Position numbers and translations under genes: made by a program. Positions 2,219 through 24,433 of a stretch of 32,000 bases of DNA are shown one piece after another; positions within the stretch are counted from its first letter, which is position 1, and the number at the start of each line of letters is the position of its first letter. The notes under the pieces are model-generated. The model made no database searches, had not been told where the DNA came from, and saw only the letters and a program-made list of their open reading frames with translations. The stretch is from positions 1,080,001 to 1,112,000 of the forward strand of contig NC_009776.1 of NCBI RefSeq assembly GCF_000017945.1, written 5' to 3'. Origin of the DNA: Ignicoccus hospitalis KIN4/I (lineage in GTDB: Archaea; Thermoproteota; Thermoprotei_A; Sulfolobales; Ignicoccaceae).

Positions 2219-3253
2219 TTAGAAGAGCTCGTAGCTCAAGTTCTCAGCTATCTTGGAGGGGTCCAAGCCAAGCTTTTTACCAGTCATTATCGTGGCTACG
2301 TCCCTCGCGTCGAGCCTCAGCAATATCAGTAAGGCTAACAAGACGGCCACCCTGAAGGGGTAGCCCGAGAAGGCCGCTAGGGCCCTCTTGCGCTGAACCC
2401 TCATGGCGTTAACCCTAACCTTGGCTAGAGCCTCGTACGGGTCCTCGGGGACGCCCTCGCCGTAAGGGGTCCTCCGGAGCAGCGGGACCACCTCGTCCGG
2501 CTTGGCTTGGACCAAGGCCCTCACGAGGTCTTGGTCGCACGCCGGCGGCTCCGCGGGCAGCTTCAAGCCCTTTAGGATGGCCCTCCCTACGAGGGTGACG
2601 GCGAGAGCGTCTATTTCCGGACAGAGGAGCTTGCTTATCTCTATCTTGCTGGTGCCCACGTTCATGCTCTTTCCTATCCTGGTTATTACGTTATACATAG
2701 ACTTCAGCAACATGACGTCCATAGCCAGCACGAAGGCCGACAAGTCCTTGTAGCTGCGGTACATCTCCACCGCTTGTTCTATGTAAGAAGCCATCTTGAA
2801 GCCCTTCAGAGCTTGAGCTAAGCCCTCCAAGCCCCTCTCCTTTATCACCAAGAGGGTGGTCGACACTACCGGATCGTCCTTAAATAGGAGGAAGCCCTCA
2901 ACCTCCTTCAAGTCCTTCCCCGAGACGGCGGCCCTCACTATTAACATCACGTCCCTTGCCCTGAGCCAGTCCACTAAGTTGTCTATCATCAGCTTCAAGT
3001 TGTATGAGGGCACGTAGCCTCTGAGCTTCATCAGTATCTCGTAGTACTTCTGGCACGCGAGCCTCTCCAGCTCCTCCGAGCTGGCCTCCTCTACCGCTAC
3101 CCCCTCGAGCCAAGTTCCCCTGAGCGCGTTCTGCACCTCCTCCGGGGTGGAGGCGGTGAGCAAGCTGAGCTCCTTCTCTTTATCGAGTATCTGCCCTCTG
3201 TACATGTAAACGAGGGCCGTGGGAGAGATCAGCTCCGCCGGCAACGCGCTCAC
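2219..3253 (-). CDS. atpC: A-type (A1AO) ATP synthase subunit C (V-ATPase subunit d / AC39 family)
   Basis: 344 aa and all-helical. The length and the C-terminal ...AFSGYPFRVAVLLALLILLRLDARDVATIMTGKKLGLDPSKIAENL pattern are typical of archaeal AtpC. Its GTG start overlaps the stop of the upstream H-like gene (GTGA). Confidence 0.65.
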   Translation of the reverse strand: MSALPAELISPTALVYMYRGQILDKEKELSLLTASTPEEVQNALRGTWLEGVAVEEASSEELERLACQKYYEILMKLRGYVPSYNLKLMIDNLVDWLRARDVMLIVRAAVSGKDLKEVEGFLLFKDDPVVSTTLLVIKERGLEGLAQALKGFKMASYIEQAVEMYRSYKDLSAFVLAMDVMLLKSMYNVITRIGKSMNVGTSKIEISKLLCPEIDALAVTLVGRAILKGLKLPAEPPACDQDLVRALVQAKPDEVVPLLRRTPYGEGVPEDPYEALAKVRVNAMRVQRKRALAAFSGYPFRVAVLLALLILLRLDARDVATIMTGKKLGLDPSKIAENLSYELF

Positions 3254-3591
3254 CCGAACAGGGCGCTCAAGACCGCCTCGACCGCCTTGTCCTTGTTGCT
3301 CTCGAACTTCCTCTCCAGCTCGTTGAGCAACTCTTGGAGCCTCCTAGCGGCCTCCTCCCGGTAGCTCTGAAGCGAGGCCGCCAGCTGTTGGTTTAGGGAC
3401 TCCTTGAGCTCGTCCAACTTCTTCTTGTACTCCGCCTCCATCTCCTCCGCGAGCTTGGCGGCCTCCGCGACCACGCCCCCGGCCTCCTCCTCGGCGCCCC
3501 TTATGGACTCTTTGACCTCCTTCTCTACCTTCTCCAAGTTCTTGAGGAACTTCTCAAACTGTTCGTTTAACGTCTTGAGGTCGCTGGCCAA
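3250..3591 (-). CDS. A-type ATP synthase subunit H-like peripheral-stalk protein (V-ATPase G-like), tentative
   Basis: 113 aa forming a single long E/K/A/L-rich helix (…EEAGGVVAEAAKLAEEMEAEYKKKLDELKESLNQQLAASLQSYREEAARRLQELL…). It is translationally coupled to atpC. It has a TTG start with GAGGAGG about 15 nt upstream. Confidence 0.45.
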   Translation of the reverse strand: MASDLKTLNEQFEKFLKNLEKVEKEVKESIRGAEEEAGGVVAEAAKLAEEMEAEYKKKLDELKESLNQQLAASLQSYREEAARRLQELLNELERKFESNKDKAVEAVLSALFG

Positions 3592-3676
3592 GCCCTTACC
3601 CCTGCCTCCTCACGCCCTCGAGGTTTAAGGACTATTCTACTCAATAGCCGTAAGCCCGAGGGGCGCGGGGGGGAAC

Positions 3677-4327
3677 TTGAGGGCCTTCGAGGCGCTCAAG
3701 GCTGTGCAAAGGCACTTGAGGGCGTGGGACTTGAAGTTCAAGGAGGGGAGCCCGAAGGTCTGCTTGCCCTCCGAGCTCCCCGAGGTCCCCGCGGGGGAGG
3801 GGCTGGACAAGGTTAAGGGTTGGATAGAGGTCTCCGAGGAGTATTGGAACTCCTTCGAGTGCGAGGAGGTAACTGTGCCGGCCGCTTACGACGGCAAGCG
3901 GGTAGTTTACGACCCCTCGGCCGGCGACGAGGCCGTGAAGTACTTGATAGCCTCCGTGTACGAACACTACTTGAACCACAAGCTGGAGGGAGCCCTCCCG
4001 AGGCTCTGGGAGAAGCGCTACGTGTACGTGCTATCCAAGGTCTACGGCCGCTTGGGGGCGCTGGAGGCGCTTAGGGCCTCCTTCGAGGCGAGCGACCTCT
4101 TCGACTCGGCCGCGATGAGGGCCGCCTCCAAGGGCCCGGATGACGGGGAGCTGGACGTGAAGCTCTTCCCCTCCGAGAAGGTGCGCTTGTTCTTAGACGG
4201 CGGGGCGGAGCTGGACGAGAGGTTGGAGAAAGTTATCATCAACAGCCCTGAGTTCGAGAAAAAGCTCTTCGCCACGGTAATTTTGGCAGAAGCGCGGAAG
4301 TTTATTAGAAATGGTTCGATCGCTTAA
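3677..4327 (+). CDS. hypothetical protein
   Basis: 216 aa with a TTG start and host-like codon usage and composition. I recognise no motif. The opposite-strand ORF at 3641..3979 looks like an antisense artefact. Confidence 0.45.
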   Translation: MRAFEALKAVQRHLRAWDLKFKEGSPKVCLPSELPEVPAGEGLDKVKGWIEVSEEYWNSFECEEVTVPAAYDGKRVVYDPSAGDEAVKYLIASVYEHYLNHKLEGALPRLWEKRYVYVLSKVYGRLGALEALRASFEASDLFDSAAMRAASKGPDDGELDVKLFPSEKVRLFLDGGAELDERLEKVIINSPEFEKKLFATVILAEARKFIRNGSIA

Positions 4328-4341
4328 AACCGGCGGCGCGG

Positions 4342-4641
4342 ATGAAGGCCTTCGCCGTGTTCCTCAGCGAGGGCGACGTGTACGAGGACGTTCCCTTGCA
4401 CAAGGTGATTATGGAGAAGGCTAAAGAAATGGGGATATCTGGCATGACTATAATAAAGGGTTATACAGGCTACGGCAAACACAAGGGCACCAGCGAGATA
4501 GACCCGTTCCACGGCTACGGGGACAAGCCGGTAATAGTCGTCGTGATAGAGGAGGAGGAGAAGGGCAAGAAGTTCGTTGAGCTCGTTAAGAGCCTTAAGA
4601 GCGACGCCCTCGTGGTCTCTTGGAACGTGGAGCGCCTATGA
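4342..4641 (+). CDS. DUF190 / UPF0166 PII-like protein
   Basis: 99 aa. The sequence MKAFAVFLSEGDVYEDVPLHKVIMEKAKEMGISGMTIIKGYTGYGKHK...KPVIVVVIEEEEKGKKFVELVKSL matches the DUF190 pattern (i.l.e.d...g.PL...i...a.e.G..GaTv.rG..GfG......lP.vie.vd.ee.i..f). Confidence 0.65.
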   Translation: MKAFAVFLSEGDVYEDVPLHKVIMEKAKEMGISGMTIIKGYTGYGKHKGTSEIDPFHGYGDKPVIVVVIEEEEKGKKFVELVKSLKSDALVVSWNVERL

Positions 4642-4651
4642 GGGAGAGGTC

Positions 4652-5377
4652 ATGGTGGACTTGAGACACCCCCTAGTGCAGGCCGCGTTAATGGTCAACG
4701 AAAAAGAGGTGACTACGAAGCTGCTCCCGTCCAACGCTTACGCGAGCTTAGAGGAGAGCGTCAAGGACTTGGCCGGGCCTTCCGGCTGTCGTCACATAAT
4801 AATAAACATAGGGCTGGTAAACGACAAATGGGACGTAGTAGAGGCGTTAGTGTGTGAGGGCGAGCTGGTCGCTTCTAACGTCGACCTCAAGAGCTACGCG
4901 CCCGAGGCCGAGGTAGAAAGGGTCGTGGGCGAGTGTTACGAGTTCCCCAAGGAATTGATCGAGAAGCTCGAAGAGCTCTCGAAAGTTGAGGTTAAGGAAG
5001 AGGTTGAAAGGTACGAGGCTGTGAAAGTAGTCCGGGCCCCGCCCCTCCCGAGGGCCCGGGCGGAAGAGATAGCCGCGAGGGAGCCCAAGCTCCCGACGGA
5101 CTTGTTGAACAACTTAACGGACGAGTGGGCCACTTACAAGTCCATATCCCACGCACTCATAATCTTCTTGGAAACCAGCGAAGTGGACTCTTACGCCGTG
5201 GCCACGGGCTCCACCGAGGACGGTAAAATAATTAGCTTGGTCTACCTCCCGGCTGAGTACAAGCCCAAGATGGAGGAATTGGAAAAAGAGATAATTAGGG
5301 TTGCCTCTGAGAACGATGTAGACATAGTTTACTTGAACGTAGGAGGGGCGGAAAAGCTAATATCCACTCGGGGATGA
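4652..5377 (+). CDS. hypothetical protein (upstream of sufC)
   Basis: The track ORF is 4577..5377. I prefer the ATG at 4652 (MVDLRHPLVQ...) because it follows GAGGGAGAGG and avoids a 65-nt overlap with the DUF190 gene. Its stop overlaps an ATG at 5374 (ATGA). I recognise no family. Confidence 0.5.
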   Translation: MVDLRHPLVQAALMVNEKEVTTKLLPSNAYASLEESVKDLAGPSGCRHIIINIGLVNDKWDVVEALVCEGELVASNVDLKSYAPEAEVERVVGECYEFPKELIEKLEELSKVEVKEEVERYEAVKVVRAPPLPRARAEEIAAREPKLPTDLLNNLTDEWATYKSISHALIIFLETSEVDSYAVATGSTEDGKIISLVYLPAEYKPKMEELEKEIIRVASENDVDIVYLNVGGAEKLISTRG

Positions 5378-5466
5378 GGAGCCCGGTTTTAGCTGAACCT
5401 CATGAGGAAGAGTTGCTCCCCCAACCCCACTATCCATTTACCCCATCTGCCGTAGCGGGGCTCCGG

Positions 5467-6186
5467 ATGCGCGAGTTGCAGGGCCTCGAAGTGGTTGACC
5501 TATGGGTCAGCGTCGGGAATAAGACCATACTAAAGGGGGTAAACCTCAAGCTCCCGAGGGGCGAGTTCCACGCCTTAGTGGGGCCCAACGGCGCGGGAAA
5601 GAGCACCTTGGCAATGACCTTGGCCGGCTACCCGGGGTACAAGGTGGTCAAGGGTGACATACTATTAGACGGGGAGAGTATCAAGGACCTCCCCCCAGAG
5701 GAGAGGGCGAAGAAGGGGCTCGCGGTGCTCCTCCAGCACCCGCCGGAGCTGGAGGGGATAAGGGTGGCGGAGCTGCTCGAGAGGCTCAAGGGCTTGTACG
5801 GCTGCAAGGATAGCGTGGAAGACTTGTTGCGCAGGGTAGGGCTGCCGAGCGACATGGCCTTCCGGTACGTCAACGTGGGCTTCAGCGGAGGGGAGAGGAA
5901 GAGGTTCGACTTGGCGAGGGTAATAGCCATGAGACCTAAGATAGTCGTAATGGATGAGCCCGATTCCGGCGTCGACGTAGAAAGCATCAAGAGGATTGCG
6001 GACGGAATAAAGTGGCTGCTCTCCCAGAACGCCGGAGTTTTGGTCATAACCCACTACAGGAACATCTTGAAATACGTTAAGCCCCATCTGGTCCACGTTA
6101 TGATAGACGGGAGGATAGTCAAGAGCGGGGGGCCCGAGATCCTCGAAGTTATTGAAGAAAAGGGCTTCGCGGGGGTGGTAGCATGA
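5467..6186 (+). CDS. sufC: Fe-S cluster assembly ATPase SufC
   Basis: It has a Walker A (GPNGAGKST), the ABC signature-like FSGGERKR, a Walker B (IVVMDEPDSGVD) and an H-loop (VITHY). The start is placed at MRELQGLEVVDLWVSV (a typical SufC N-terminus). The track's ATG at 5374 would add 31 non-conserved residues but gives an ATGA overlap, so the start is uncertain. Confidence 0.9.
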   Translation: MRELQGLEVVDLWVSVGNKTILKGVNLKLPRGEFHALVGPNGAGKSTLAMTLAGYPGYKVVKGDILLDGESIKDLPPEERAKKGLAVLLQHPPELEGIRVAELLERLKGLYGCKDSVEDLLRRVGLPSDMAFRYVNVGFSGGERKRFDLARVIAMRPKIVVMDEPDSGVDVESIKRIADGIKWLLSQNAGVLVITHYRNILKYVKPHLVHVMIDGRIVKSGGPEILEVIEEKGFAGVVA

Positions 6187-7499
6187 ACGAGGTCCAGATA
6201 ATTAAGTACTACGCGGAAGAGATATCCAAGAAACTGAAGGAGCCCGAGTGGGCGCTGAGGCTCAGACTGAAGGCTGCAGAGCTCTACCCAAAGGTCCCAG
6301 CGCCGCCGTGGATGCCCGAAGACTTCGACTTGGAGGCCTTCGCCGCTAAAGCGGCGGAGGAGGAGTTCGTGAAGCCCGGGGAGGGCGAGATACCGGACTG
6401 GTACAAGGCCTTACTCGAGAGGATAGGAGTGCCGGACATAGAGCAGAGCGCGCTGGCCGGAGTTACGGTGATGGTTAACGAGAACGTGGTCTATGAGGCG
6501 CAGAAGAGGGACCTCATGAGGAAGGGAGTGATACTCAAATCGATGGACGAGGCCGTGAGGGAACACGAGGAATTCGTGAAGGAGAGGCTCCACTCCGCCC
6601 AGAGGCCGGAGGCCCACAAGCTGGCCGCCCTCCACGCCGCCCTCCGGAGGGGAGGGACCTTCATGTACGTCCCGCCGAGGGTCAGGGTACCCTTCCCGGT
6701 CCAAGCGTTCTTCGTGATAACGGAGGAACAACTGGCACAGACGGAACACACCATGATAATAGCAGACGAGGGAAGCTACGTACACTTCATAGAGGGCTGT
6801 ATAGTCCCCATCCCGGCGCCCTTCAGCGTACACTTGGGCGGCAGCGAGTTCTTCGTTGAGAGGGGCGCTAGGCTGAGGGTCTCCAGCCTCCAAGACTGGC
6901 TGGGCGACGTAGTACACGTGCCGGTCAAGGGCGCGATAGTGAAGGAGAGGGGAACTCTGGAAGAGCTCGGGGTGAGCTTCGGAGGGACCAAGATAGGCAT
7001 GAGGCCCACCATAAGGTTGGTCGGCGAGGGGGCCAAGCTCTCCTTCAACAACGTAGCGCTACTAAAGAAGGAGATGAGGTCTTGGAGCGGCTCCTTCGTT
7101 AAGATGGAGGCTCCGAGGACCAGCGCCACTGTAATAAATAGGAGCGTGATGCTGGACAAGTCCTTCGAGGAGTTCTTGGGCGAGATAGACGTGGAGAGGG
7201 GGGCGAAGGGAGTAAAGGGCTATCAGTCTTGTAACACCCTCCTGCTGAGCGACGAAGCCACTAACGTGACCATACCGAAGCTCGTAAGCAAGACGTCCGA
7301 CGCTGAGCTGGCGCACGAGGGCACGGTAGGGAAGCTCGGCGAGGAACAGCTGTTCTACTTGAGGTCCATGGGCTTCACCGAGCCCGAGGCTGTACAGATG
7401 CTAACCATAGGCTTCATAGACCCGCTCGTGAAGGACTTACCTAGCGACTACGTCAGGGCAATAAGGGAGATAGTTAAGATGACCCTCAACGCCTCGTGA
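6183..7499 (+). CDS. sufB: Fe-S cluster assembly scaffold protein SufB/SufD family (SufB-like)
   Basis: 438 aa. It overlaps sufC by ATGA. The beta-helix core, ...TEHTMIIADEGSYVHFIEGC...NNVALLKKEMRSWSGSFVKMEAPRTSATVINRSVMLD...CNTLLLSDEATNVTIPKL...AHEGTVGKLGEEQLFYLRSMGFTEPEAVQMLTIGF, is characteristic of SufB/SufD. Confidence 0.85.
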   Translation: MNEVQIIKYYAEEISKKLKEPEWALRLRLKAAELYPKVPAPPWMPEDFDLEAFAAKAAEEEFVKPGEGEIPDWYKALLERIGVPDIEQSALAGVTVMVNENVVYEAQKRDLMRKGVILKSMDEAVREHEEFVKERLHSAQRPEAHKLAALHAALRRGGTFMYVPPRVRVPFPVQAFFVITEEQLAQTEHTMIIADEGSYVHFIEGCIVPIPAPFSVHLGGSEFFVERGARLRVSSLQDWLGDVVHVPVKGAIVKERGTLEELGVSFGGTKIGMRPTIRLVGEGAKLSFNNVALLKKEMRSWSGSFVKMEAPRTSATVINRSVMLDKSFEEFLGEIDVERGAKGVKGYQSCNTLLLSDEATNVTIPKLVSKTSDAELAHEGTVGKLGEEQLFYLRSMGFTEPEAVQMLTIGFIDPLVKDLPSDYVRAIREIVKMTLNAS

Positions 7500-7508
7500 G
7501 GCTCCAAC

Positions 7509-7524
7509 CTTTATTATTTTTGTT
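7509..7524 (+). terminator. T-rich tract downstream of sufB (candidate archaeal oligo-T terminator, doubling as TATA-like box for the next gene)
   Basis: CTTTATTATTTTTGTT starts 10 nt after the sufB stop and includes a T5 run at 7517-7521. It is the only AT-rich patch between sufB and the 7550 gene. Confidence 0.3.
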
Positions 7525-7549
7525 CCTAAGTAGGACCCCGGAAGGGAGT

Positions 7550-7924
7550 ATGCCCGAAGAGGAGAAGAAGGAGGAAGTAAAGGAACAAGAGCAACAGAAG
7601 AAGAAAGTGGACATAAAGGCGCTGGTCAAGCTGGTGCCGCCGGCCAGCGCCCTCAAGCAGAGGACCAGCAAGGCCAGGGAGAAGAGGATAAGGCTGAGGT
7701 TGAAGGACGTCAAGCCCACTCAAGCTAAGATAAACCCGAACCTAGCGGAACAGCTGGGCATAACCGACAAGCTCGAGATAGCTGTATCCGGCAAGAAGTT
7801 CGTCTTCGAGGCGGTAAAGGACTCCTCAGTGCCGGAGAACGAGGTACACGTGAACGAGGAGCTGATGAGGGAGAACGGGATCTCGGACAACACCATAGCT
7901 ACCGTGAGGGCCCACCGCGGCTAG
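7550..7924 (+). CDS. small Lys/Glu-rich protein with C-terminal VAT-N/CDC48-N-like double-psi beta-barrel (tentative)
   Basis: The start is placed at ATG 7550 (AGGGAG upstream, with a TATA-like TTTATTATTTTT at 7510-7521). The N-terminus is low-complexity (EEEKKEEVKEQEQQKKK). The C-terminus, RLRLKDVKPTQAKINPNLAEQLGITDKLEIAVSGKKFVFEAV...PENEVHVNEELMRENGISDNTIATVRA, mirrors the two psi-loops of VAT-N (lrV.e....g.a.id......LGv..gD.veI.g.....a.v......g.irid...R.N.gv..gd.v.v). Confidence 0.45.
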   Translation: MPEEEKKEEVKEQEQQKKKVDIKALVKLVPPASALKQRTSKAREKRIRLRLKDVKPTQAKINPNLAEQLGITDKLEIAVSGKKFVFEAVKDSSVPENEVHVNEELMRENGISDNTIATVRAHRG

Positions 7925-9624
7925 GTGCCCTTAACTTCCTCCCTAAGGATCTTCAGCAAGTACTTTATCAAATCGGCCTTAGTTACCATGCCTACTAACT
8001 TAACGTTTTCGTCGATGACCATAGCGTGGTCCTCGCTCTTGTTCATCATTAACTCGATGACGTAAGCTATGCTAACTTTTTTATACACTATTACGCGGGG
8101 CAAGTACATTATCTCCTTTATCCTCTTACTGGGCTCCTCGACGATTAGCTCCTCCAAGCTCACCTCCCCTACGAGCTTGTCGTTCGCGTCCACCACCGGG
8201 TAGTGGTTGTGGGTTTCCTTGGCTGCCAAGTCCAAAGCCTCCGCTACCGTCATGTTCTCCGTGAACCTCAAGACGTTCTTATTAACTATATTTTCAACCT
8301 CCACCCTCAACGCCTTCTCGAACCCCTTCTTCTCCTTTAACTTCAAGTATATCTCAATGATACTCCTCTTCTTTATGTCTTGGGGCTCCGGGAGCTGGCC
8401 GGCGACCAAGCTTACGGGCAAGGTGAGCAAGTAGCCCACGCTGGCGGCCACGGTCGAGGTGAAGAAGGCTCCGAAGCCCAAAAACTCTACCCCTATGAGA
8501 ACGCTAGTTAGCAAGGTCTTCATTGAGGAGGCGAACAGCGAGGAGACGCCAGCTATCATTATTGGTTCAACCGTATGTATGGAGAAGAACTTGGCGTAGA
8601 GTAACCCTAGGGCGGAACCTATAGAGACCAAAGGCATGAAGAGGCCTCCGGTGGCGCCCCAAGTTAAGGATAGGGGGAGCAACAGGGACTTGGCTACGGC
8701 AACCAAGGCTAAGGTCTCTTCCTCGAGGGACTCGGGCTCGTTGAACACCTTTTCTGTCAACAAGTCGCCCGCCCCCGGCACCAAGGGGGATACGAGGAAA
8801 GTGGACGCTATTATTAACAAGCTCAACGCTAGGGGCGGGACGAACCAGTACCTCCTCCTCACGAACTTGTCGGACAGTTCGCCGCTCTTGTGCTTAATGA
8901 AGTAGATTATGTACGTAAGGGCGGCCGCAGTGCCCCCTACACCCAAGGAGGCGAGGACCACGTCCAAGCTCGGGTAGGGGGGCTTGAAGGGCCTGCTTAC
9001 CAACAGAAGCCTCTGGGGGCCCGCGAGGAACACCGTGACCAAGTACGAGGTGAGGGTGGCGACTAGGGCTTGTAGGAAGATCCCCCCTTCTATGGCCCTC
9101 TTGTAGGGCACCTCCATTGCGAACGCCATGGCCGTTAGGGGGGCTCTAAATACCGAGGCCACCCCCGCCGCCGCCCCTACCAGTACCATCCTCTTCAGCT
9201 CTTCCCCCCTCGCCCCCAACCACCAAGCGAGCCAGTAGCCGAAGAAGGCGCCGAGCGCTATTCCGGGGCCCTCGGGGCCCACCACCGCGCCCCCTAAGGC
9301 TGAAGTAATGGAGCCCAGCGTGTAAACGGCGAGCTCCTTCTTGCCTATGTAGCCCAACTTCGCGTGGTAGGAGCGCACCACGTAGCTTGTGGAGGAGCCG
9401 TGGAGGGTGCCGAGCAACTTCTTCAAGAAGTACGCGGTGAAGAGTATGCTCGAAACGGAGACGAGAGCGAATAGGTGAGGGTAATTCGTAGCGAGGACGT
9501 ATCTGAACTTGTTGGACCATACGAATACGTCCGTGAAGAAAGCGACTGCCGCGCCGGAGACCAAGCCTATTAGGAAGGCCGCGCCGAGCGCTTGTAGGTC
9601 CTCTGGGAGGTCATTAACCTTCAC
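7921..9624 (-). CDS. ClC-family voltage-gated chloride channel/antiporter with C-terminal CBS pair
   Basis: 567 aa with a GTG start and multiple TM helices. The ClC selectivity motifs are GPEGPGIALGAFFG (the G(K/R)EGP type) and GGLFMPLVS (GxFxP). The C-terminal region has two CBS repeats (...THNHYPVVDANDKLVGEVSLEELI..., ...SEDHAMVIDENVKLVGMVTKADLI). Confidence 0.85.
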   Translation of the reverse strand: MKVNDLPEDLQALGAAFLIGLVSGAAVAFFTDVFVWSNKFRYVLATNYPHLFALVSVSSILFTAYFLKKLLGTLHGSSTSYVVRSYHAKLGYIGKKELAVYTLGSITSALGGAVVGPEGPGIALGAFFGYWLAWWLGARGEELKRMVLVGAAAGVASVFRAPLTAMAFAMEVPYKRAIEGGIFLQALVATLTSYLVTVFLAGPQRLLLVSRPFKPPYPSLDVVLASLGVGGTAAALTYIIYFIKHKSGELSDKFVRRRYWFVPPLALSLLIIASTFLVSPLVPGAGDLLTEKVFNEPESLEEETLALVAVAKSLLLPLSLTWGATGGLFMPLVSIGSALGLLYAKFFSIHTVEPIMIAGVSSLFASSMKTLLTSVLIGVEFLGFGAFFTSTVAASVGYLLTLPVSLVAGQLPEPQDIKKRSIIEIYLKLKEKKGFEKALRVEVENIVNKNVLRFTENMTVAEALDLAAKETHNHYPVVDANDKLVGEVSLEELIVEEPSKRIKEIMYLPRVIVYKKVSIAYVIELMMNKSEDHAMVIDENVKLVGMVTKADLIKYLLKILREEVKGT

Positions 9625-20484: not shown

Positions 20485-20943
20485 ATGACCTACGAGCTGG
20501 TCAAAACCGATGAAGGCACTTTAAGCGTTAAAGGTCATTCGATCCGATTTATGCTCATTCCCTCCTCCGCATTAGTTAAGATACACGAGGAACTCAAGAA
20601 AGTGTTGGGACCGGCGGCGGACGTAATGATGAGGAAGGTAGGGGAGGGCTTTGGAGAAGCGGTAGTGGAGTTGGTCAAAAAGGAGGAGGGCAGCGACGTA
20701 GATTCGATAAAGAGGTTTTTGGAGAAGAGCGGGTTCGGCGTTGTGGAAATAACTTCGGAGGGAAATGACAACTGCACCATTACGATACACAAGGCCCCCT
20801 CTAGGGACTTCGACACCAACGTGTGCAAGTTCGAGGAAGGAATAATAAAGGTGCTCTTAGAGGCCTTCAACGGAGGGAAGTGGAAGGTAAGGACCGTTAA
20901 GGCGGAAGGGGAGGACTGCGTCATAGAGGCGACCAAGGGCTAG
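20485..20943 (+). CDS. V4R (4-vinyl reductase-type) small-molecule-binding domain protein
   Basis: 152 aa. The N-terminal part, ...GHSIRFMLIPSSALVKIHEELKKVLGPAADVMMRKVGEGFGEAVV, and the C-terminal part, ...NVCKFEEGIIKVLLEAFNGGKWKVRTVKAEGEDCVIE, fit the V4R pattern (R..l.......l...l....G..a...ly..G...G ... C....G...G.l.........v.E..C...G...C.f). TACTATAAAT lies about 32 nt and GAGGTGAAGG about 17 nt upstream of the ATG. Confidence 0.6.
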   Translation: MTYELVKTDEGTLSVKGHSIRFMLIPSSALVKIHEELKKVLGPAADVMMRKVGEGFGEAVVELVKKEEGSDVDSIKRFLEKSGFGVVEITSEGNDNCTITIHKAPSRDFDTNVCKFEEGIIKVLLEAFNGGKWKVRTVKAEGEDCVIEATKG

Positions 20944-21300: not shown

Positions 21301-22104
21301 TTAAATCTCCTTTCCTATCAAGAGTTTTATTATTTTGATTATGTCGTCTCCAGTGATTTTAGCCTCATCATTAATATTAATCCCACAACAACATAGGACA
21401 TAGGCGTAGAACAGCGCCGCCGCGTCGCCCTTCCACGGACAGTAGGGGAACCTGAATTTGTCCCTCGTGAGGGCCGCCCTAACGACCTCGTAGAACCACT
21501 CCGACCTGGAATCCAGCTTTTCCTCGCTCTTCAGGTAGGTGACGGCGGCCGCTAGGAGCAAGAACTTGCAGAACAGCTCTTGATTATCGATGCACTCCTT
21601 CACGTCACTTAAAGCTTGAGAAAGTCCCTGGGCCTTTCCATCATCGTAGCAAGTGTTGAACAGGTGTAGGATTTTATTGAGCTTAGACTTTTTCTCTCTA
21701 TCAATGGTATCCCAATTCTCCTTCAATTTTTCCAATAAATCCTTCAAGATCACGGTGCAATCATCTTGGCCCTTTCCACTGTCCCGTAGTTCTTTATGTA
21801 AACTCTTCTCTAGATCGTTAGGGTCTATCCCGGCTTCATGTACAGTCTTATTTAATACCTCCCTTAAGAACTTCTCCAAGAACCTCTTCGGGTCGTCCTT
21901 GCAGACGTCCTCACCCTCAAACAAGTTGTTCGAGAGCCCCTTCGCCAAATCTTTTAGCAGCTCTGAGGGGCTTACCTCATTGACGCCCTTCTCTTCACAC
22001 TTGCCTTTGCCCTCCTTTGGCCTCGGTAATACCTTTAGGAGGTTGTCGAGTTTCGTGAGTTCGTTCGCGCTCGACCCACTCCCTCCCGAGTCCTCATTGC
22101 TCAA
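21301..22104 (-). CDS. orphan Cys-rich, Lys/Asp/Glu-rich hypothetical protein with atypical composition (TTG start, no internal Met)
   Basis: This is a 267-aa open frame whose only canonical start is TTG 22104. It has ten Cys, including a VLCCCG run and FPYCPW, and a Gly/Ser-rich N-terminus. It uses AAA, GAT, AAT, TTA and CAT codons that the neighbours avoid. My hand count of 21301-22080 gives about 47% G+C, with 60-nt stretches of about 28-42%. I recognise no family. Confidence 0.5.
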   Translation of the reverse strand: MSNEDSGGSGSSANELTKLDNLLKVLPRPKEGKGKCEEKGVNEVSPSELLKDLAKGLSNNLFEGEDVCKDDPKRFLEKFLREVLNKTVHEAGIDPNDLEKSLHKELRDSGKGQDDCTVILKDLLEKLKENWDTIDREKKSKLNKILHLFNTCYDDGKAQGLSQALSDVKECIDNQELFCKFLLLAAAVTYLKSEEKLDSRSEWFYEVVRAALTRDKFRFPYCPWKGDAAALFYAYVLCCCGININDEAKITGDDIIKIIKLLIGKEI

Positions 22105-22164
22105 CCCTTCTCGCCATTTGAGACGGAAGGTGGCCGTTATTTATTCGTTCTCACAAGCTGTGGA

Positions 22165-23047
22165 TCAAATTAGCCAAGCGCGTCCGGACTTCGCTCGCAC
22201 AGCCGTCGTACCTCTTGAAGTCGGCCCTATAGCTCCCCTCAGCGCCCTCTTCAAAGAACAGAGCGTGTTCACGCCCTCAACCTTAGAGACCCAAAGCTCG
22301 GCGTAACCCTTGATCAGCTCATCGAGCTTGGAGGTGTCGGGAGAGTTAGGGCGGAGGACCTTGTTCGCCGCCTCCAACATTTTTCCAACGTTTCGTCCGT
22401 ACCTCCCTCGCCCCGCTTGCCGGCCTCGAATTCGATTAGCGCGAACCTCCCGAAGCCCCACCTGGTCGCCCTGCCCACGCCATAGAGGGTCATAACGACT
22501 AGCGCGGTAGCGGCGAAGAGCGGGAAGAGCTCCTCGGCCTTTTCATTGACGTCGCTGGTTCGCGGCTTGAGGAAGACCTCCACCTCCAACTTCCCGGCGT
22601 CGACGAAGGGAACCTCCGCCGTCCCTGACGGGGGCGAGCACGAAACCTTAGCTTTGGACGGGTCCTCGGAGAGGTTGTACCTCACAGTGAGGTTGAAGGG
22701 GCTCCCCCACGATGACTTCTTGCCGACCCTGCCGAACATGAACTCGGTCAGCCTTAGCTCAAGGCTGGTCTTATCGGAGAGTTTTACCGTTATCGTATCT
22801 CTCCTCAAGCATTTGCTCTGTCCCTCCATTGCCTCGCTCAGCCTCCTCATCCTGCCTATTATGGAGTAGGGCTGGGGTCCCCCCTACGTAGCGCTCGCCG
22901 CAAGCGGACTGTCTGAAAGGCCCCCGCGTCGCCGCTGGAGAAGGGGGTGACGTTGACGAACCTCATTTTGAGGTACCTCTTCGGCGTGAAAAGCCTCTTC
23001 TCCACCTCCTTAGCCGTCAGAGCTACGCCGTAACTCGTCGAGAGCAA
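22165..23047 (-). pseudogene. RAMP-superfamily (Cmr1-like) CRISPR-associated gene interrupted by two frameshifts
   Basis: Three successive ORFs lie in three different frames (22859-23047, 22314-22850, 22165-22461). The N-terminus is ...MRFVNVTPFSSGDAGAFQTVRLRRALRR. The central part carries the glycine-rich RAMP loop LYGVGRATRWGFGRFALIEF. The frame breaks are placeable at C6 (22879-22884) and T5 (22380-22384). Confidence 0.5.
22314..22850 (-). CDS. largest intact frame of the RAMP-like gene (would be annotated as a 178-aa hypothetical protein)
   Basis: It starts at ATG and contains ...TITVKLSDKTSLELRL...FNLTVRYNL...LEVEVFLKP...FAATALVVMTLYGVGRATRWGFGRFALIEFE. The last roughly 40 residues (CWRRRTRSSALTLPTPPSSMS) look out of frame. 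Confidence 0.5.
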   Translation of the reverse strand: MRRLSEAMEGQSKCLRRDTITVKLSDKTSLELRLTEFMFGRVGKKSSWGSPFNLTVRYNLSEDPSKAKVSCSPPSGTAEVPFVDAGKLEVEVFLKPRTSDVNEKAEELFPLFAATALVVMTLYGVGRATRWGFGRFALIEFEAGKRGEGGTDETLEKCWRRRTRSSALTLPTPPSSMS

Positions 23048-23173: not shown

Positions 23174-23722
23174 TTGAGCCCGGAGGAGTTCGATAAGGAA
23201 ACTGTTGCTAAGGTCTTCGCCAACTTCGCCGAGAAGTTCATGTTCGACACCCTCCCCAAGAACTTAAAGAAGTACGTCGGAGAGGGGGCGGCGACCGCGT
23301 TGATCTTCAACATAGTTAAGGAAGGTGCCAAGGAAACCATGGGAGAGGAGCTGAAGAAGATGATAAAGGTAGAGAGTCTGAAGGACGCCATGAAGGCTTG
23401 TTATTTGCCCTACAAGCTCGTAGGCATGGAGTTCGAGTACGAGGAGGCCGAGGAGGGCGACGAGTACGTCTTCAAAGTCACTAAGTGTCCGCACTTCAAG
23501 TACACCAAGGACATGCCCTTCGCTTGCGCCGCGTGCGCGGCGATAAAGGCCGGTATAATAGAGAAGCTCGAGGACAAGCCCGTCCAAATAGTGTTCAAGG
23601 GGACCAGGAGGCTCGGCAGCCGCGAGCCCGGGATCTTGATAGAAGTAGTCAAGCACATGCCCTCCGGAGACCCCTACTGCGAGTTCCGGTTGAAGGAGCT
23701 ACCCAGACAAGGCCAGAGTTAG
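23174..23722 (+). CDS. V4R / ATC-hydrolase-like Cys-motif small-molecule-binding protein (tentative)
   Basis: 182 aa with a TTG start (the alternative ATG gives MFDTLPK). The C-terminal half, ...VFKVTKCPHFKYTKDMPFACAACAAIKAGIIEKLEDKPVQIVFKG...VKHMPSGDPYCEFRLKE, fits the C...C....G...G......v......C..Gd..C.F pattern. Composition is host-like. Confidence 0.45.
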   Translation: MSPEEFDKETVAKVFANFAEKFMFDTLPKNLKKYVGEGAATALIFNIVKEGAKETMGEELKKMIKVESLKDAMKACYLPYKLVGMEFEYEEAEEGDEYVFKVTKCPHFKYTKDMPFACAACAAIKAGIIEKLEDKPVQIVFKGTRRLGSREPGILIEVVKHMPSGDPYCEFRLKELPRQGQS

Positions 23723-24433
23723 GAGAGCGTATTCTTCCCACCACCTCCCCCCTTTTAGGGCGCACAGCGCCGCCAGAGCAGCTTCCGCGGGGGAGCACCT
23801 CCCGGTCACCAAGTCCCTCAAGAGGGACTTAGCCAACTGGGCCAGCGGGGGGTCGTAGTAGAGGGCGTAGGCGTAGAGCGAGTACAACAAGTTAACGGTC
23901 TTGGTAAAGTTTCCTCCGTGAAGCCTCCTAGCCAAGGTTTTGAACGCGTAAAGCTCCCCCATGTTCAAGTTCGAAGGGGCGCAAGGCGCCGGAGGGGGCC
24001 TCAAACCTTTAGCGAGGCTCTCGTACGTCCCTTTCAAGACTAAGAAGCAATACAAGGCCCGGGCGTCCTCGCGCCCCTCCAAGCACTTCAAGAACTCCTC
24101 CAACCCCTTGGCCTCTGGGTAGGAGGAGACCATGACGTAGTACCACTGGCCGTAGGTCCTTAGCTCTAAGAGGTTCTTCACCTTCGGGAGCCTCGCGGTG
24201 AGGGCCTCCACGAGTTCCCCCGCGAGCCTCTTGGGGTAGTCCGGCGGCAGCAGCCCCCTCGAGCGGTAGCATAGCGTCCTATTCGTCAACGAGCTGAGCA
24301 GCCACAAGGTCAAGTCTGTGGCTAACAAACTCCCCTCCCTTAGGGAGTAAGATATCGCGTGGGCCCCGCAGTCCGTAACGGGCAGTTGGGCTGTCAAGTT
24401 GGCAATTACAACGTAGAGCAGGGTTGTGTTCAA
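23699..24433 (-). CDS. hypothetical protein (Leu/Ala-rich, helical)
   Basis: 244 aa with a TTG start. Its 3' end overlaps the convergent V4R-like gene by 24 nt. Codon usage is host-like. No recognisable motif, and the start is uncertain. Confidence 0.45.
   Translation of the reverse strand: MNTTLLYVVIANLTAQLPVTDCGAHAISYSLREGSLLATDLTLWLLSSLTNRTLCYRSRGLLPPDYPKRLAGELVEALTARLPKVKNLLELRTYGQWYYVMVSSYPEAKGLEEFLKCLEGREDARALYCFLVLKGTYESLAKGLRPPPAPCAPSNLNMGELYAFKTLARRLHGGNFTKTVNLLYSLYAYALYYDPPLAQLAKSLLRDLVTGRCSPAEAALAALCALKGGRWWEEYALLTLALSG

Follow-up and report, generated by a model that had tools for sequence, protein, structure and literature searches.

A probable pseudogene of a long-type cmr1 in Ignicoccus hospitalis

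A 32,000-nucleotide (nt) stretch of the Ignicoccus hospitalis KIN4/I genome (NC_009776.1, 1,080,001–1,112,000; hereafter the window, whose positions are used below unless a contig or profile is named) carries on its minus strand what is very probably a non-functional remnant, or pseudogene, of a crenarchaeal long-type cmr1, the gene for a RAMP subunit of the type III-B effector. The ancestral gene has undergone damage of at least four kinds. One nucleotide was lost at a run of G, now G6 (22879–22884), and a second within 22381–22428, where an A5 run offers the simplest site. About 24 codons present in the closest homologues are missing from its interior, and the whole C-terminal RAMP half (~220 codons) is gone, leaving a cut end that abuts Igni_1240, an orphan gene of lower guanine–cytosine (GC) content. 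The remnant would yield no protein and have no function, and the two annotated genes within it, Igni_1241 and Igni_1242, would be artefacts of gene calling.

Three reading frames and a Cmr1-like product

Three minus-strand open reading frames (ORFs) make up the locus, at 22859–23047 (Igni_1242), 22314–22850 (Igni_1241) and 22165–22461 (unannotated). The middle ORF is identical to ABU82417.1/WP_012123381.1 of I. hospitalis KIN4/I, and the gene names follow from the lengths and sequence of entries in that strain's published proteome table: Igni_1240 (267 amino acids, aa), Igni_1241 (178 aa) and Igni_1242 (62 aa). An earlier note on this DNA, made from its letters alone, had listed the same three ORFs with frames stepping by one, together with two plus-strand homopolymers, C6 at 22879–22884 and T5 at 22380–22384, and had expected a read-through product of about 270–295 aa; each of these points was confirmed. 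The frame steps by −1 at each of the two junctions, and one added base per junction brings all three ORFs into a single frame. With one base added at both runs, the product is open for 267 aa from an ATG or 294 aa from a TTG.

Direct comparison of this corrected product with family models gave little. The Pfam RAMPs model PF03787 matched residues 88–175 at 15.5 bits (E=0.026), below its gathering threshold of 22.1, and scans with NCBIfam (including TIGR01894) and PADLOC gave no hit, to a curated Cmr1 model or to any other. A search against PDB sequences returned nothing useful, and a word-indexed search of 5.8 billion proteins retrieved only the product itself. When HMMER was run against 1.84 billion representative proteins, two matches beyond self were recovered, P0005 (504 aa, E=1.1e-7) and P0006 (487 aa, E=1e-4), both from hydrothermal-vent assemblies. 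The alignment with P0005 covers query residues 122–243, and so crosses the second junction, and tblastn of the fragment 2 region against the two proteins gave E=2e-10 and 7e-10, respectively.

Both homologues lie in type III-B operons, each between cmr5 and cmr6 in the order cmr4-cmr5-X-cmr6-cmr2(cas10), with cmr3 next in the P0006 contig. PADLOC recognizes both as Cmr1 (3.5e-21 for P0005 and 9.7e-18 for P0006). The Pfam RAMPs model scores P0005 at 25.0 bits, which passes the threshold, and P0006 at 20.6 bits; TIGR01894 scores P0005 at 24.2 bits, under its cutoff of 28.65. Because these two proteins sit between cmr5 and cmr6 and match Cmr1 models, the assignment of the corrected product as a Cmr1-like RAMP is supported transitively, by sequence comparison through P0005 and P0006. 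The family call of the earlier note therefore stands by way of intact homologues, and not by the direct matches, which remain below threshold.

Four further long RAMP proteins came from a profile search, among them P0010 from Thermofilum pendens and P0011, which is annotated by the Joint Genome Institute (JGI) as 'CRISPR type III-B/RAMP module RAMP protein Cmr1'. The six intact proteins, without the Ignicoccus sequence, were then used to build a family profile of 530 positions. The middle frame alone scored 45.3 bits against it and the first frame 7.2 bits, the latter being the second best among all six-frame segments of the window. Joining the three frames lifts the score from 45.3 to 71.4 bits, which indicates that the three fragments are collinear pieces of one cmr1 homologue. 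Over profile positions 9–305 the remnant runs collinear with the long-type Cmr1 proteins of Thermoproteota III-B operons (P0005, P0006, P0010 and P0011), with 24–28% identity, and shares with them a TP..G motif, an I.G..R.L helix, an FG motif and a G.G.....GFGRF loop.

Fragment 1 (22862–23047, minus strand), the annotated Igni_1242 at 22859–23047, holds 'VNVTPFSSG' (22931–22957), which alignment to P0005/P0006 identifies as the counterpart of 'YNYTPYMGG' in intact Cmr1; the codon-usage signal for this frame is positive from about 23040 to 22900. Fragment 2 (22314–22883, minus strand) consists of Igni_1241 and 33 nt of open frame upstream of it. It contains the alpha-1 motif 'IIGRMRRLSE' (22833–22862), 'FMFG' (22731–22742) and the glycine-rich RAMP loop 'LYGVGRATRWGFGRFA' (22440–22487), and from about 22380 to its end at 22314 the frame reads on out of phase and no longer encodes Cmr1 sequence. 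The loop, already recognized in the earlier note, fits the pattern G.G.....G[FY]G: 'GVGRATRWGFGRF' aligns with the invariant 'GLGKA..RGFGRF' of the six intact members, with one invariant R replaced by W. Fragment 3 (22165–22383, minus strand) is the 3′ part of the unannotated ORF and matches family positions ~240–305 with a helical segment, 'KMLEAANKVL...LIKGYAELWVSK...SLKRALRGAIGPTS'. Its stop codon falls where intact Cmr1 runs on for ~220 further residues.

Structure prediction, one of the checks suggested in the earlier note, is loosely consistent with a RAMP fold. An AlphaFold2 (AF2) model from a 7-sequence alignment reached a predicted template modelling score of 0.70 and a predicted local distance difference test score (pLDDT) of 64.3, which is medium quality. 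The top 18 PDB matches returned by Foldseek were all type III RAMP subunits, but weak (E 0.012–0.63, template modelling scores 0.27–0.45); they are Csm3/Csm5-type (Cas7-like) RAMPs of type III-A complexes (6xn5, 9ash, 9g9b and others) and carry no information on subtype.

The two frame breaks can be placed with unequal precision. Stop codons limit break 1 to 22862–22883, and in the new frame tblastn detects homology to P0005/P0006 from 22883 onward; break 1 is therefore at the G6 run (22879–22884 in the coding sense of the minus strand), or no more than one or two codons away. One extra G at this run restores the frame, and the chance of a run of six or more touching a random 22-nt window is 2.5% (p=0.025). 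At break 2, homology continues in frame 1 through 'GFGRFALIEF' and is back in frame 0 from 'KMLEAANKVL' (22354–22383), and the codon-usage frame changes between windows centred on 22403 and 22373, at about 22390. The A5 run at 22380–22384 (minus strand) is the longest run inside the permitted interval of ~22381–22428. As a run of five or more is expected by chance in 23% of 48-nt windows, a break exactly at A5 is plausible, and we claim nothing firmer. The proposal in the earlier note that both breaks lie exactly on homopolymers accordingly holds for the first, and for the second is narrowed only to this interval.

Two further features of the sequence were noted. The codon-usage plot hints at a third −1 step near 22240 (22154–22260, minus strand), into a frame encoding 'YDGCASEVRTRLANLIHSL'; we do not claim this step, as the gain against the Cmr1 profile is nil (71.5 vs 71.4 bits). 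An imperfect 28-nt inverted repeat, 79% complementary, pairs 22717–22744 in the middle fragment with 23235–23262 in the 5′ part of Igni_1243, and is probably due to chance.

Truncation, lost residues and alternative readings

Intact long-type Cmr1 proteins are 487–626 aa long and carry a second, C-terminal domain. The remnant spans profile positions 9–305 only, and positions 306–530, the C-terminal half, have no match in any six-frame segment of the window. The read-through product corresponds to the N-terminal ~55% of the Cmr1 of its clade and lacks the two-domain architecture, a point overlooked in the earlier note. The remnant frame closes at 22165, with 60 nt separating it from Igni_1240, and GC content drops there from 57–63% to 43–53%. 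An internal gap of ~24 residues relative to P0005/P0006 shortens the remnant further. Two frameshifts, an end at about position 305, this internal deletion and a location among housekeeping genes together set the remnant apart from the long-type Cmr1 proteins.

Residues that the family does not otherwise vary have also been lost. Taking as invariant the 22 positions fixed in the six intact members, the remnant has lost seven, the lowest retention in the set (others 73–100%). The alpha-1 motif I.G..RW[FL].R is no longer complete: in IIGRMRRLSE an R stands in place of the W and an E in place of the final R, and I, G, R and L are kept. The earlier note had sought this motif in the first ORF, as 'RLRRALRR'; it lies in the middle frame, upstream of the annotated Met, and aligns with 'LIGKVRWLAR' of the intact homologues. 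In Saccharolobus islandicus Cmr1alpha the motif reads I52-x-G54-x-x-R57-W58-F59-x-R61 and is recognizable in the remnant as I-I-G-R-M-R-R-L-S-E, so that W58 and R61 would correspond to R and E, an equivalence based on motif spacing and not on direct alignment. When the corresponding W and R residue groups were mutated in the S. islandicus protein, its capture of target RNA and its crRNA binding were both impaired (Li et al. 2017, PMC5737701).

Published proteome data are consistent with a gene that is no longer expressed as protein. Igni_1241 and Igni_1242 have no spectra in either pure culture or co-culture, and the neighbouring Igni_1239, Igni_1240 and Igni_1243 were all detected (PMC3149612 Table S1).

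Several observations weigh against a dead gene, or against its identity as cmr1. The scores of the corrected product against family models are below threshold, which leaves the link to Cmr1 a transitive one. The published proteome covered only ~75% of proteins, so zero spectra are no proof of absence. Within each fragment the codon-usage signal is still strong in the fragment's own frame, and 15 of the 22 invariant residues are kept, including the whole glycine-rich loop; together these indicate that inactivation was recent or that some constraint persists. Both −1 breaks fall at sites that formally allow slippage of a single tRNA (AGG-GGG-G and GAA-AAA-T). Finally, an orthologue was sought in close relatives and none was found. 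Nevertheless, the two frameshifts, the missing C-terminal half, the lost invariant residues and the lack of detected protein favour a decaying remnant of a type III module, the first of four readings offered in the earlier note. The other three fare poorly.

The fragments could still be functional as they stand, with Igni_1241 acting as a stand-alone single-RAMP-domain protein co-opted to a non-CRISPR role alongside the orphan Igni_1240. Igni_1241 has its own ATG, 178 codons and the glycine-rich loop, and Igni_1240, encoded on the same strand, follows after 60 nt and shows low-level expression. The annotated gene itself argues otherwise: its start cuts off the alpha-1 motif, which extends upstream in frame, its last ~22 residues are out-of-frame read-on, and it has no spectra. 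Igni_1240 differs from the remnant in base composition (GC 43–53% vs 57–63%) and has no tie to any cas or defence family, and the pair occurs in no other genome searched. Recruitment together with the downstream ORF is thus unsupported, and we regard it as very unlikely.

Recoding or phase variation appears less likely again. Here two −1 slippages, ribosomal or transcriptional, at the G6 and A5 runs would produce a truncated Cmr1-like protein of ~270–295 aa that could serve a Cmr complex lacking its own cmr1. The two shifts share a direction and can be placed on runs that allow P-site tRNA re-pairing, the coding signal is preserved across all three frames, and the glycine-rich loop and 15 of 22 invariant residues survive. 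An expressed cmr operon without cmr1 exists in the genome, and a crenarchaeal example of programmed −1 frameshifting is known, fucA1 of Saccharolobus solfataricus. Against this, no peptide of Igni_1241 or Igni_1242 was seen although their neighbours were detected, and two low-efficiency events in series would give a vanishing yield. Both sites are plain runs, neither being a canonical X XXY YYZ heptamer, and no conserved frameshifted orthologue was found in any collection searched. Run lengths are equal in three assemblies. Restoring the frames would still give a truncated and mutated protein, without the second RAMP domain and without the alpha-1 W and R for RNA binding, and we find no positive evidence for slippage. 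A more specific form of the proposal, in which slippage both produces a single-domain Cmr1-like protein for the Igni_0460–0464 complex in trans and sets its amount, has a smaller chance still; if true, an archaeon would have a recoded cas gene.

The least likely reading, that the gene is intact and both breaks are sequencing or assembly errors in the reference genome, draws on the fact that both can be placed on homopolymer runs, where such errors typically arise, and is effectively refuted because independent assemblies are identical across both runs. Contigs L001 (Logan ERR9765778) and L002 (JGI 3300004930), from separate runs, show 100% identity with the window across 3.6 and 2.3 kb, both homopolymers included, and a third record, HIH90892.1, encodes the same frameshifted C terminus; all three probably represent the same strain, so the comparison speaks to sequencing error and not to variation within a population. 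Even the corrected product would lack the C-terminal Cmr1 half and seven invariant residues.

Genomic neighbourhood of the remnant

The cmr1 remnant stands apart from other CRISPR components in its surroundings. Scans for tandem and direct repeats found no CRISPR array in the window, none of its 30 other ORFs has a cas Pfam domain, and neither Rfam nor tRNA scans produced a hit there, in line with the absence of cas genes and repeat arrays reported in the earlier note. The window genes are housekeeping genes, and the remnant, unlike its P0005/P0006 homologues, is not part of a cmr operon. Its description as a 'solo' RAMP is accurate for the window but not for the genome, in which nine CRISPR arrays and 37 cas genes have been reported (PMC3149612). 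A type I-A cluster (Igni_1132–1141) and two cmr-type operons (Igni_0326–0329 and Igni_0460–0464) lie elsewhere on the chromosome.

Comparison with relatives places the remnant within a block that they lack. Two metagenome-assembled genomes (L006 and L007) and I. pacificus (L008) keep the orf244–ATPase–amidohydrolase arrangement without the whole Igni_1239–1243 block, and none of the three has counterparts of Igni_1239, Igni_1240, Igni_1243 or the remnant. This syntenic comparison, also proposed earlier, consequently recovered no ancestral state. In L006, the closest relative, the region left of the orf244 homologue (2832–9329 of that contig) encodes tyrosyl-tRNA synthetase, an aldo-keto reductase, PPS_PS, proteasome alpha and an SSF transporter; all of these but the tyrosyl-tRNA synthetase are found directly upstream of a cmr operon in I. 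hospitalis (contig L087, 1446–6622). Because gene neighbourhoods differ in this way between L006 and I. hospitalis, the block holding the remnant probably lies at a genome rearrangement breakpoint, next to Igni_1244 (~23700). We looked for repeats flanking Igni_1239–1243, as a mark of mobile-element insertion, and found only short matches at chance level. A scan of a collection of genome contigs with the Cmr1 alignment, which did not return the source genome, confirmed nothing, and a literature search on the locus tags gave no result.

Igni_1240 (21301–22104, minus strand), directly downstream of the remnant, encodes a 267-aa orphan protein, rich in Cys and in Lys/Glu, for which an entirely helical structure is predicted. 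Pfam, NCBIfam and PADLOC assign it to no family, viral contigs contain no relative, and a single-sequence AF2 model was unusable (pLDDT 37). The gene has a GC content of 43–53%, compared with 57–63% for the remnant, and its product is present at low abundance in the published proteome. Igni_1240 may have come from a foreign source, and may be a trace of whatever event took away the 3′ half of cmr1.

On either side of Igni_1240–1242 lie two small V4R/MetOD1-type proteins, Igni_1239 (20485–20943, plus strand) and Igni_1243 (23174–23722, plus strand). One has similarity to the MsvR C-terminal region and the other a MetOD1 match, and both are abundant, with 140 and 539 spectra. In the three closest relatives, neither turned up within 10 kb of the conserved ATPase gene. 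At the edge of the block, Igni_1243 and Igni_1244 converge with a 24-nt overlap of their 3′ ends (23699–23722), and Igni_1244 and the PilT-family ATPase diverge with an 8-nt overlap of their 5′ ends (24426–24433) when called from the first start codons; this ATPase is 504 aa in the published annotation and 521 aa here.

An expressed cmr operon without cmr1

One of the two cmr-type operons, Igni_0460–0464 (L087 10001–16290, outside the window), bears on where the remnant may have come from. Its order is cmr4-cmr5-cmr6-cmr2-cmr3, which is that of the P0005/P0006 operons except for cmr1, and all five genes are intact and their proteins abundant in the proteome. The cmr5 and cmr6 genes overlap by 11 nt, exactly where related operons (contigs L003 and L086, which carry P0005/P0006) have cmr1. 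No trace of cmr1 was found in and around this operon (L087, 20.8 kb), and no intact cmr1 in the portion of I. hospitalis examined. The proteome table likewise holds no Cmr1 annotation or neighbouring arCOG number, a weak negative.

Given that all five proteins are well expressed, the Cmr complex of Igni_0460–0464 appears to work without an operon-encoded Cmr1. Its subunits are 27–48% identical to their counterparts in the P0005/P0006 operons, and the remnant is 24–26% identical to P0005/P0006, a comparable distance. This similarity in sequence distance, together with a gene order that is that of the homologues minus cmr1, suggests that the remnant may be what is left of the cmr1 of the Igni_0460–0464 module.

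The locus is an unannotated cmr1 pseudogene of a familiar kind, the decay of a cas gene in a reduced genome, and it involves no new mechanism or system. For annotation, the hypothetical proteins Igni_1241 and Igni_1242 should become one cmr1 pseudogene. Cmr2–6 are reported to form a stable core complex that has basal activity without Cmr1 (PMC5737701), and the high expression of Cmr4-5-6-2-3 in I. hospitalis, where no intact cmr1 was found in the portion examined, fits these data. It would be a natural case of cmr1 loss in a genome-reduced hyperthermophile.

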